Shown here: piece by piece, positions 27,064 through 30,909 of the stretch
How positions within the stretch are numbered: the stretch's first letter is position 1
Layout of the letters: each line of letters opens with the position of its first letter
Position numbers and translations under genes: made by a program
Source: Escherichia coli
Lineage (GTDB): Bacteria; Pseudomonadota; Gammaproteobacteria; Enterobacterales; Enterobacteriaceae
NCBI RefSeq assembly: GCF_003334305.1
Contig: NZ_QOWS01000006.1
DNA length: 64,000 nt
Strand: one strand, 5' to 3'
The notes under the pieces: generated by a model
The model's database searches: none
Seen by the model: the letters and a program-made list of their open reading frames with translations, nothing else
What the model was told of the DNA's origin: nothing

Positions 27064-27754
27064 GTGCAAGTTTCTGCACCAGTGACTCAACCATCAGGCT
27101 GGACTGTTTAGCGGCAACAGCCAGGAACTCATCGAAGCTAAGATGAGACTGTTGATCGGCCACGTCGGAGATGGCGCGTACGACAACAAACGGGACGTTG
27201 AAATTGTGGCAGACATGGGCGATTGCCGTCGCTTCCATCTCTACAGCAATGGCCTGTGGGAAGTTGTGGCGGATTTTCGCCAGACCAACAGAACCGTTGA
27301 TGAAAGCGTCGCCGCTAACAATCAGGCCACGTACAGCGTTAAGATTCAGTTCGGCAATGCAGGCCTCAGCGGCAGCGATCAGTTTATCGTCAGCTTTAAA
27401 GCCTGCCGGACAGCCTGGTAACTGACCGTATTCATAACCAAATGCCGTGACATCCGCGTCGTGATAACGTGCTTCGTCCGAGACAACGATATCGCCCACT
27501 TTCAGCGTTGGTGCCAGGCCACCGGCAGAACCGGTGTTAATAATCACATCTGGCTTGCAGTGTTCCAACAGCAGAGTGGCACCCAGCGCCGCAGCGACTT
27601 TACCGATGCCCGATTTCAGAAGCGCAACCTCGGTTCCATTCAGTTGGCCGGTATAGATTTCGCAACCGCCGAGACTGATAGTTTGACGGTTTTCGATTTT
27701 GTCACGCAGCAGCGTAACTTCTTCTTCCATTGCACCAATGATGCCGATTTTCAT
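27056..27754 (-). CDS. mtnN: 5'-methylthioadenosine/S-adenosylhomocysteine nucleosidase
   Basis: 232-aa [23 protein letters not shown]... recognised as Mtn/Pfs. Confidence 0.9.
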
Positions 27755-27837
27755 AGATTTACTCGCGATAAGCCCGATTTGAAGGCATAGTTTACCATGC
27801 GCTTACGGGGAAGCGTATTTCTCACGCGGGAGAGGAC

Positions 27838-29355
27838 ATGGCACAGATTGATTTCCGAAAAAAAATAAACTGGCATCGTCGTTACCGTTCACCGCAGGGC
27901 GTTAAAACCGAACATGAGATCCTGCGGATCTTCGAGAGCGATCGCGGGCGTATCATCAACTCTCCGGCAATTCGTCGTCTGCAACAAAAGACCCAGGTTT
28001 TTCCACTGGAGCGCAATGCCGCCGTGCGCACGCGTCTTACTCACTCGATGGAAGTCCAGCAGGTGGGGCGCTACATCGCCAAAGAAATTTTAAGCCGTCT
28101 GAAAGAGCTTAAATTGCTGGAAGCATACGGCCTGGATGAACTGACCGGACCTTTTGAAAGCATTGTTGAGATGTCATGCCTGATGCACGATATCGGCAAT
28201 CCGCCGTTTGGTCATTTTGGCGAAGCAGCGATAAATGACTGGTTTCGCCAACGTTTGCACCCGGAAGATGCCGAAAGCCAGCCTCTGACTGACGATCGCT
28301 GCAGCGTGGCGGCACTACGTTTACGGGACGGGGAAGAACCGCTTAACGAGCTGCGGCGCAAGATTCGTCAGGACTTATGTCATTTTGAGGGGAATGCACA
28401 AGGCATTCGTCTGGTGCATACATTGATGCGGATGAATCTCACCTGGGCACAGGTTGGCGGTATTTTAAAATATACCCGTCCGGCGTGGTGGCGTGGCGAA
28501 ACGCCTGAGACACATCACTATTTAATGAAAAAGCCGGGTTATTATCTTTCTGAAGAAGCCTATATTGCCCGGTTGCGTAAAGAACTTAATTTGGCGCTTT
28601 ACAGTCGTTTTCCATTAACGTGGATTATGGAAGCTGCCGACGACATCTCCTATTGTGTGGCAGACCTTGAAGATGCGGTAGAGAAAAGAATATTTACCGT
28701 TGAGCAGCTTTATCATCATTTGCACGAAGCGTGGGGCCAGCATGAGAAAGGTTCGCTCTTTTCGCTGGTGGTTGAAAATGCCTGGGAAAAATCACGCTCA
28801 AATAGTTTAAGCCGCAGTACGGAAGATCAGTTTTTTATGTATTTACGAGTAAATACCCTAAATAAACTGGTACCCTATGCGGCACAACGATTTATTGATA
28901 ATCTGCCTGCGATTTTCGCCGGAACGTTTAATCATGCATTATTGGAAGATGCCAGCGAATGCAGCGATCTTCTTAAGCTATATAAAAATGTCGCTGTAAA
29001 ACATGTGTTTAGCCATCCAGATGTCGAGCAGCTTGAATTGCAGGGCTATCGGGTCATTAGCGGATTATTAGAGATTTATCGTCCTTTATTAAGCCTGTCG
29101 TTATCAGACTTTACTGAACTGGTAGAAAAAGAACGGGTGAAACGTTTCCCTATTGAATCGCGCTTATTCCACAAACTCTCGACGCGCCATCGGCTGGCCT
29201 ATGTCGAGGCTGTCAGTAAATTACCGTCAGATTCTCCTGAGTTTCCGCTATGGGAATATTATTACCGTTGCCGCCTGCTGCAGGATTATATCAGCGGTAT
29301 GACCGACCTCTATGCGTGGGATGAATACCGACGTCTGATGGCCGTAGAACAATAA
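27838..29355 (+). CDS. dgt: dGTP triphosphohydrolase
   Basis: 505-aa ORF with HD-domain motifs ([16 protein letters not shown]). Confidence 0.9.
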
Positions 29356-29411
29356 CCAGGCTTTTGTAAAGACGAACAATAAATTTTTACCTTTTGCAGA
29401 AACTTTAGTTC

Positions 29412-29439
29412 GGAACTTCGCGCTATAAAACGAATCTGA
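29412..29439 (+). promoter_or_regulatory. sigmaE-type promoter of degP (-35 GGAACTT, 16-nt spacer, -10 TCTGA)
   Basis: GGAACTT at 29412-29418 and TCTGA at 29435-29439 read in the sequence, about 45 nt upstream of the degP ATG; a GTAAA-containing candidate CpxR site lies just upstream at about 29366. Confidence 0.7.
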
Positions 29440-29484
29440 AGAACACAGCAATTTTGCGTTATCTGTTAATCGAGACTGAAATAC

Positions 29485-30909
29485 ATGAAAAAAACCACAT
29501 TAGCACTGAGTGCACTGGCTCTGAGTTTAGGTTTGGCGTTATCTCCGCTCTCTGCAACGGCGGCTGAGACTTCTTCAGCAACGACAGCCCAGCAGATGCC
29601 AAGCCTTGCACCGATGCTCGAAAAGGTGATGCCTTCAGTGGTCAGCATTAACGTAGAAGGTAGCACAACCGTTAATACGCCGCGTATGCCGCGTAATTTC
29701 CAGCAGTTCTTCGGTGATGATTCTCCGTTCTGCCAGGAAGGTTCTCCGTTCCAGAGCTCTCCGTTCTGCCAGGGTGGCCAGGGCGGTAATGGTGGCGGCC
29801 AGCAACAGAAATTCATGGCGCTGGGTTCCGGCGTCATCATTGATGCCGATAAAGGCTATGTCGTCACCAACAACCACGTTGTTGATAACGCGACGGTCAT
29901 TAAAGTTCAACTGAGCGATGGCCGTAAGTTCGACGCGAAGATGGTTGGCAAAGATCCGCGCTCTGATATCGCGCTGATCCAAATCCAGAACCCGAAAAAC
30001 CTGACCGCAATTAAGATGGCGGATTCTGATGCACTGCGCGTGGGTGATTACACCGTAGCGATTGGTAACCCGTTTGGTCTGGGCGAGACGGTAACTTCCG
30101 GGATTGTCTCTGCGCTGGGGCGTAGCGGCCTGAATGCCGAAAACTACGAAAACTTCATCCAGACCGATGCAGCGATCAACCGTGGTAACTCCGGTGGTGC
30201 GCTGGTTAACCTGAACGGTGAACTGATCGGTATCAACACCGCGATCCTCGCACCGGACGGCGGCAACATCGGTATCGGTTTTGCTATCCCGAGCAACATG
30301 GTGAAAAACCTGACCTCGCAGATGGTGGAATACGGCCAGGTGAAACGCGGTGAGCTGGGTATTATGGGGACTGAGCTGAACTCCGAACTGGCCAAAGCGA
30401 TGAAAGTTGACGCCCAGCGCGGTGCTTTCGTAAGCCAGGTTCTGCCTAATTCCTCCGCTGCAAAAGCGGGCATTAAAGCGGGTGATGTGATCACCTCACT
30501 GAACGGTAAGCCGATCAGCAGCTTTGCCGCACTGCGTGCTCAGGTGGGTACTATGCCGGTGGGCAGTAAACTGACCCTGGGCTTACTGCGCGACGGTAAG
30601 CAGGTTAACGTGAACCTGGAACTGCAGCAGAGCAGCCAGAATCAGGTTGATTCCAGCTCCATCTTCAACGGCATTGAAGGCGCTGAGATGAGCAACAAAG
30701 GCAAAGATCAGGGCGTGGTAGTGAACAACGTGAAAACGGGCACTCCGGCTGCGCAGATCGGCCTGAAGAAAGGTGATGTGATTATTGGCGCGAACCAGCA
30801 GGCAGTGAAAAACATCGCTGAACTGCGTAAAGTTCTCGACAGCAAACCGTCTGTGCTGGCACTGAACATTCAGCGCGGCGACAGCACCATCTACCTGTTA
30901 ATGCAGTAA
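29485..30909 (+). CDS. degP: periplasmic serine endoprotease/chaperone DegP (HtrA)
   Basis: 474-aa ORF with signal peptide, catalytic GNSGGAL motif and two PDZ regions. Confidence 0.95.
   Translation: MKKTTLALSALALSLGLALSPLSATAAETSSATTAQQMPSLAPMLEKVMPSVVSINVEGSTTVNTPRMPRNFQQFFGDDSPFCQEGSPFQSSPFCQGGQGGNGGGQQQKFMALGSGVIIDADKGYVVTNNHVVDNATVIKVQLSDGRKFDAKMVGKDPRSDIALIQIQNPKNLTAIKMADSDALRVGDYTVAIGNPFGLGETVTSGIVSALGRSGLNAENYENFIQTDAAINRGNSGGALVNLNGELIGINTAILAPDGGNIGIGFAIPSNMVKNLTSQMVEYGQVKRGELGIMGTELNSELAKAMKVDAQRGAFVSQVLPNSSAAKAGIKAGDVITSLNGKPISSFAALRAQVGTMPVGSKLTLGLLRDGKQVNVNLELQQSSQNQVDSSSIFNGIEGAEMSNKGKDQGVVVNNVKTGTPAAQIGLKKGDVIIGANQQAVKNIAELRKVLDSKPSVLALNIQRGDSTIYLLMQ

Follow-up and report, generated by a model that had tools for sequence, protein, structure and literature searches.

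The σE promoter, putative upstream CpxR module and 5′ leader of degP in a segment of the Escherichia coli chromosome

The promoter of degP (htrA), controlled by σE and by the Cpx system, is already known in full and is a textbook feature, and degP is the standard reporter of the two main envelope-stress responses. Published data establish that expression of the gene depends on both σE and CpxR. degP belongs to the conserved core of the σE regulon (PMC1312014) and is the gene most strongly induced when σE is overexpressed (56-fold, PMC2731931). According to Rhodius et al., the σE consensus consists of GGAACTT and TCAAA with a strongly preferred distance of 16 nt between them, a discriminator of 5 or 6 nt, and 26 or 27 nt from the −35 element to +1 (PMC1312014). 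On the Cpx side, degP rises 26.6-fold in a cpxA24 strain and 32.4-fold upon NlpE overproduction, and it is still up 6.4-fold in a cpxR deletion with NlpE (PMC9600279). The closest described system for the leader is the htrA fourU RNA thermometer of Salmonella enterica (RF02700; Klinkert 2012; PMC5602114), for which SHAPE confirmed the fold and cooperative melting was found at ~36 °C in the 40-nt UTR (PMC5602114). To this account the locus described here adds an upstream module as conserved across species as the σE elements themselves, a spacer position at which K-12 carries the minority allele, and an E. coli copy of the htrA thermometer without one stem pair found in Salmonella.

We analyzed one 64-kb stretch of DNA (64,000 nt, here called the window), which is Escherichia coli chromosome. 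Many RefSeq E. coli chromosomes match a 501-nt query around the degP promoter with 100% identity; of 5426 complete E. coli genomes, 5425 contain this dgt-degP region, and the matched records are annotated dgt and degP. Positions 29360–29484 make up almost the entire dgt-degP intergenic region (129 bp), whose G+C content is 36% versus 52% for the window. Very probably, this region is the classical site of stress-responsive degP control, consisting of a σE promoter, Cpx input and a fourU leader. Its features are as follows:

27838–29355, + strand: dgt (dGTPase equivalog NF003429, 896 bits)
29216–29230, + strand: distal CpxR box degP2, GTAAATTACCGTCAG, inside the 3′ end of dgt; a known site listed in PMC9600279 Table S1
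29366–29390, + strand: 25-bp module GTAAA-gacga-ACAAT-aaatt-TTTAC, −79 to −55; its first 15 bp are the listed CpxR site degP1
29412–29418, + strand: σE −35 element GGAACTT, −33 to −27; 7/7 to the Rhodius consensus (PMC1312014)
29419–29434, + strand: 16-nt spacer, read from the sequence, with TATAAA at 29424–29429
29435–29439, + strand: σE −10 element TCTGA, −10 to −6; 16 nt from the −35 element
29445, + strand: degP transcription start site (A), MG1655 position 180844, from Cappable-seq and Kim et al. 2012
29445–29490, + strand: HtrA 5′ UTR fourU thermometer, Rfam RF02700 (77 bits versus a gathering score of 52, full model 1–46)
29485–30909, + strand: coding sequence of degP (htrA), the regulated gene (DegP equivalog NF008189, NCBIfam, 935 bits versus a cut-off of 720; RefSeq annotation)

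MG1655 positions were converted to window positions by exact sequence match, and the fixed offset between the two is valid at degP and fails at positions beyond it in the window. The offset shifts by ~713 bp between degP and tff (window ~30400 to ~37600), and the window strain and K-12 must therefore differ by an indel within the stretch from cdaR to map.

The sequence-only reading of this region had proposed a near-consensus σE promoter, GGAACTT-16-TCTGA, and we find it present to the base. A search of both strands of the 64 kb returns GGAACTT-N16-TCTGA only here (29412–29439, + strand), and the motif occurs in none of 100 dinucleotide-preserving shuffles of the window (0/100). Relaxing the pattern to GGAACTT-N15-17-TCNNA yields the same single match, with 0.40 expected by chance. 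TCTGA agrees with the consensus TCAAA at three of five positions, among them the T, the C and the final A, and fits the TCNNA pattern. In place of a weight matrix, σE sites were scored by their agreement with the consensus at 10 positions, with shuffled sequences and the opposite strand as controls; the degP promoter alone in the window reaches 10/10, and all other sites score 9 or less. Six σE-like sites reach 9/10, the next-best score, and one of these, GGAACTA-16-TCGAA at 44880–44907 (+ strand; MG1655 196992–197019), lies inside rseP, ~900 nt upstream of bamA. The rseP-internal site may be one of the known σE promoters of that gene cluster.

Transcription start site data agree with this placement. 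Cappable-seq maps a degP start to MG1655 180844 with a score of 41.6, its neighbors on the same strand being 180669 (score 1.8) and 181771 (PMC4782308 supplement). Kim et al. 2012 place the degP start at 180844 as well, with a 40-nt 5′ UTR, and their −50 to +1 string for degP ends ...GAATCTGAAGAACA (PMC3415461 supplement). The corresponding A at 29445 is 5 nt past TCTGA and 26 nt past GGAACTT, within the σE geometry of PMC1312014. We checked whether the start maps elsewhere, and two independent genome-wide maps give the base that σE geometry predicts. The locus has calibration value in this respect: the σE promoter was placed to the base from sequence alone, with the start site agreeing with public data. 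RNA polymerase with σE (RpoE) would recognize GGAACTT as the −35 element and TCTGA as the −10 element, and transcription begins at the A at 29445. Both start-site data sets also contain a start at MG1655 181771/181772 (window 30372–30373, + strand), inside the degP coding region; it is assigned to cdaR by Kim 2012 (PMC3415461) and has a Cappable-seq score of 9.0 (PMC4782308).

For a cross-species comparison, species-representative genomes were scanned with a degenerate nucleotide pattern back-translated from the DegP peptide PMLEKVMPSVV, which begins 42 codons into the coding sequence. Loci were chosen by coding sequence only, with no reference to the promoter, which gave at least 120 Enterobacterales loci. 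We analyzed 112 sequences among the matches listed (111 loci and the window itself), each with its MK(K/R/T) start and the 200 nt that precede it. Scored against GGAACTT-16-TCNNA, 101 of the 112 degP upstream regions among the matches listed have a best match of at least 9/10, and 56 have one of 10/10. The same threshold is passed by 7 of 2,240 mononucleotide shuffles and by none of the 112 opposite strands. Among the 112 listed matches, the −35 element is most often GGAACTT (n = 59), TGAACTT (n = 35) or GGAACTA (n = 10), with (G/T)GAACTT in 94; the −10 element is TCTGA (n = 48), TCTCA (n = 29) or TCTTA (n = 23), with TCT(G/C/T)A at 16 nt from the −35 element in 100. The spacer of the best motif is 16 nt in 105 of these 112 listed sequences. 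The taxa sampled include Escherichia, Salmonella, Citrobacter, Enterobacter, Klebsiella, Pantoea and Erwinia, and further Serratia, Yersinia, Rahnella, Hafnia, Lonsdalea and others.

Within E. coli, the K-12 promoter degPp has the same −35 element, −10 element, start site and UTR as the window and differs from it in the spacer. Across 29340–29500, the window and MG1655 differ solely at 29420–21, the second and third spacer bases after the −35 element (GC here, AG in K-12). A 65-nt query matches 4022 of 5425 genomes (~74%) at 99% or more and the other 1403, including K-12 DH10B, at 95–99%, from which it follows that the AG spacer of K-12 is the minority allele. CGCG or AGCG is also found at this point of the spacer in many other genera.

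The spacer also contains the hexamer TATAAA, which opens a different view of how the Cpx signal reaches degP. Cpx activation could run partly or wholly through an overlapping σ70 promoter with TATAAA (29424–29429) as its −10 element and a start ~7 nt ahead of 29445, where the CpxR module makes up for the absent −35 element. TATAAA is conserved in Enterobacteriaceae, and closely spaced starts are known from relatives: Salmonella htrA has a second start, with a UTR of 47 nt in addition to that of 40 nt (PMC5602114), and in Klebsiella two degP starts are separated by 9 nt (PMC3415461). An overlapping σ70 promoter would likewise fit the strong dependence of degP on CpxR even in unstressed LB, where a cpxR knockout lowers degP by log2 2.2–2.5 (4.5–5.7-fold; PMC7657598 supplement). 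We nevertheless consider it unlikely. Both E. coli maps show 180844 alone between 180669 and 181771, a σ70 consensus scan of 29100–29700 found no promoter, and the positions 17–18 bp upstream of TATAAA hold no −35-like hexamer. The observation that CpxR overexpression alone does not induce degP, which its authors attribute to dependence on limiting σE (PMC2731931), also argues against a σ70 route. We favor Cpx input at the σE promoter itself: CpxR-P would bind the module at −79 to −55 and stimulate the σE holoenzyme from a class-I-like upstream position, as its location and published work suggest.

A candidate CpxR site containing GTAAA, just upstream of the σE promoter, was the second element of the sequence-only reading. 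The site is listed in the literature as degP1 and is conserved, and to that extent the proposal holds; by the matrix scan it is a poor match (6.1 bits, one canonical half-site). GTAAA lies at 29366–29370, 46 nt upstream of the −35 element, and an inverted copy, TTTAC, lies at 29386–29390. A lone GTAAA is not significant, as the window has 2.7 copies per kb (both strands) and 11.6% of its 50-bp stretches have one. The pair GTAAA-N15-TTTAC occurs a single time in 64 kb.

With sequences anchored on the −35 element, the 25-bp module is at least as conserved as the σE elements. Enough upstream sequence was available for 97 species among the matches listed, and in these the distance from the start of GTAAA to the −35 element is 45 or 46 nt in 90, that from the start of TTTAC is 25 or 26 nt in 93, and the spacing from GTAAA to TTTAC is exactly 20 nt in 86. 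This spacing is constant across at least four enterobacterial families. The matches listed contain 53 distinct 25-mers, in which GTAAA (positions 1–5), A14, A16 and TTTAC (positions 21–25) are invariant; A13 and T15 are each present in at least 51 of these 25-mers, T19 and T20 each in 49. Taken as blocks, GTAAA, CAATA and TTTTTAC vary little or not at all.

The first 15 bp of the module, degP1 (GTAAAGACGAACAAT), are a known CpxR site in a compilation citing De Wulf 2002 (PMC9600279 Table S1). Like the CpxR box GTAAA-N5-GTAAA (De Wulf 2002), degP1 has a perfect GTAAA as its first half-site and a 5-nt gap, and it stands upstream of a Cpx-induced gene. Unlike that box, it has ACAAT as its second half-site, with 2/5 matches, and the module carries a third pentamer, the inverted TTTAC, 5 nt further on. 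The GTAAA-N5-ACAAT tandem is centered near −72. Second halves of known CpxR sites include ACAAA, which is as degenerate as ACAAT (PMC9600279 Table S1). We built a CpxR log-odds matrix from 39 listed sites, leaving out both degP sites, under which degP1 scores 6.1 bits (rank 156 of 127,972 window positions) and known sites score 2.1–20.3 bits (median 14.0); recovery of the listed skp site at 48235–49 (15.3 bits) served as the positive control. The matrix scan alone would not single out degP1, and its support comes from conservation and the literature. CpxR-P was reportedly seen by Pogliano et al. in 1997 to protect DNA upstream of the degP −35 element. Secondary listings make 29366–29390 a candidate for direct CpxR-P binding. 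The wider claim of dual σE/Cpx control of degP is supported by the published expression data, the start site and the listed CpxR site degP1. Against direct control by CpxR stand the low matrix score of degP1, a ChIP-exo study whose direct CpxR targets do not include degP (PMC7657598) and the lack of degP induction by CpxR overexpression alone (PMC2731931).

It is also conceivable, if highly doubtful, that the 25-bp module is bound mainly by a factor other than CpxR, either another regulator or the C-terminal domain of the α subunit on a UP-like A/T tract, with Cpx control being indirect or exerted through the distal box in dgt. The low matrix score would agree with this, as would the outer GTAAA and TTTAC, which are inverted and do not form the canonical direct repeat, and a ChIP-exo study in which degP is CpxR-dependent in expression and absent from the direct CpxR targets (PMC7657598). 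A/T-rich UP-like sequences upstream of σE −35 elements were described by Rhodius et al. (PMC1312014), and for Citrobacter rodentium an additional regulatory role of PhoB has been proposed (PMC3511308). Set against these points, the published compilation, citing De Wulf 2002, counts the site among those known for CpxR (PMC9600279), known CpxR sites include second halves as degenerate as this one (for example ACAAA), and the invariant pentamers are precisely GTAAA and its inverted copy. The T-tract, moreover, lies ~9 nt too far upstream for a canonical UP element, as calculated from the start site. We see slim prospects for a further idea, in which the module is a unit with inverted outer pentamers, GTAAA-N5-NCAAT-N5-TTTAC, and not a simple CpxR direct repeat. 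It would then be recognized either by a further factor or by CpxR itself in an atypical arrangement, for example with two protomers or dimers facing opposite ways. CpxR-P acting at this module is the reading we retain.

The second CpxR box, degP2, inside dgt, may also contribute to Cpx control. With both degP sites left out of the matrix it scores 12.3 bits and ranks 13 in the window. It lies ~47 nt upstream of the weak start at MG1655 180669 (window 29270), and a TATTAT −10-like hexamer is present at 29257–62; this start gives degP a 215-nt UTR, as for Salmonella htrAp1. Third-codon positions under degP2 and the hexamer are 0.9–1.0 conserved versus a mean of 0.64, a difference that is no more than suggestive, with 11 species aligned. 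The top CpxR-matrix match of the window is elsewhere, GTAAATCTATGAAAA at 27748–27762 (− strand, 16.7 bits) in the mtn-dgt intergenic region, a site also picked up by a genome-wide CpxR screen at −76 from dgt (PMC9600279).

That the σE motif is incidental, and that most degP transcription comes from read-through of dgt or from an upstream promoter inside dgt, is extremely improbable: a terminator scan of 29100–29700 found no intrinsic terminator between dgt and degP, and the weak 180669 start with its 215-nt UTR has a parallel in htrAp1, but the 180844 start is ~23 times stronger in Cappable-seq (41.6 versus 1.8) and the σE motif is conserved in 101 of 112 species among the matches listed.

Downstream of the σE promoter, the leader resembles the Salmonella thermometer. 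The sequence-only reading made no mention of an RNA thermometer in the degP 5′ UTR. The RF02700 match starts exactly at the mapped start site and includes the whole 40-nt leader (29445–84), and by its sequence the E. coli leader clearly falls within the RF02700 family. In the Rfam alignment, U8–U11 (29452–55) stand opposite G28–A31, which form the GAGA at 29472–75 of the Shine-Dalgarno sequence (CGAGA, 29471–75), and the hairpin has a bulged C and a 5-nt loop. The same pairing of the fourU with the Shine-Dalgarno sequence appears in the predicted minimum free energy (MFE) structure at 30 and 37 °C. The E. coli element thus shares with that of Salmonella the 40-nt UTR, the fourU opposite the Shine-Dalgarno sequence, the bulged C and the 5-nt loop.

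The two differ in the lower stem. E. coli has C at model position 32 (29476) versus U in Salmonella, which turns the A7-U32 pair into A·C, so that the E. coli copy is without one stem pair and its predicted stability is halved. We judged thermometer energetics by MFE and pairing probabilities. The E. coli leader has a predicted MFE of −3.0 kcal/mol at 37 °C and a C32U version −6.8 kcal/mol; predicted accessibility of the Shine-Dalgarno sequence stays at ~0.55 throughout the range 20–45 °C for E. coli and ~0.0–0.07 for the C32U version. Compared with shuffled sequences, the E. coli leader fold is no more stable (z = +0.95). The E. coli thermometer is accordingly predicted, from these models, to be weaker than that of Salmonella. 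By analogy with Salmonella, where it has been seen, pairing of the fourU hairpin with the Shine-Dalgarno sequence would add a temperature-dependent layer of translational control to the E. coli leader, probably a weaker one.

An Rfam test of 16 diverse loci detected RF02700 only in E. albertii, Salmonella, Citrobacter and Enterobacter, and in the same test it was not detected in Klebsiella, Kosakonia, Pantoea, Yersinia and others. The core stem hardly varies among the leaders of Escherichia, Salmonella, Citrobacter and Enterobacter. Since positions 32–33 vary without compensating changes on the 5′ side and the core stem is near-invariant, the alignment neither supports nor refutes the structure.

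Two further Rfam families match the window downstream of degP. The t44 RNA, annotated as tff in K-12, is found at 37648–37734 (+ strand, 83.5 bits) as the leader upstream of rpsB, and CssrA is found at 38573–38682 (+ strand, 136 bits) in the rpsB-tsf intergenic region.
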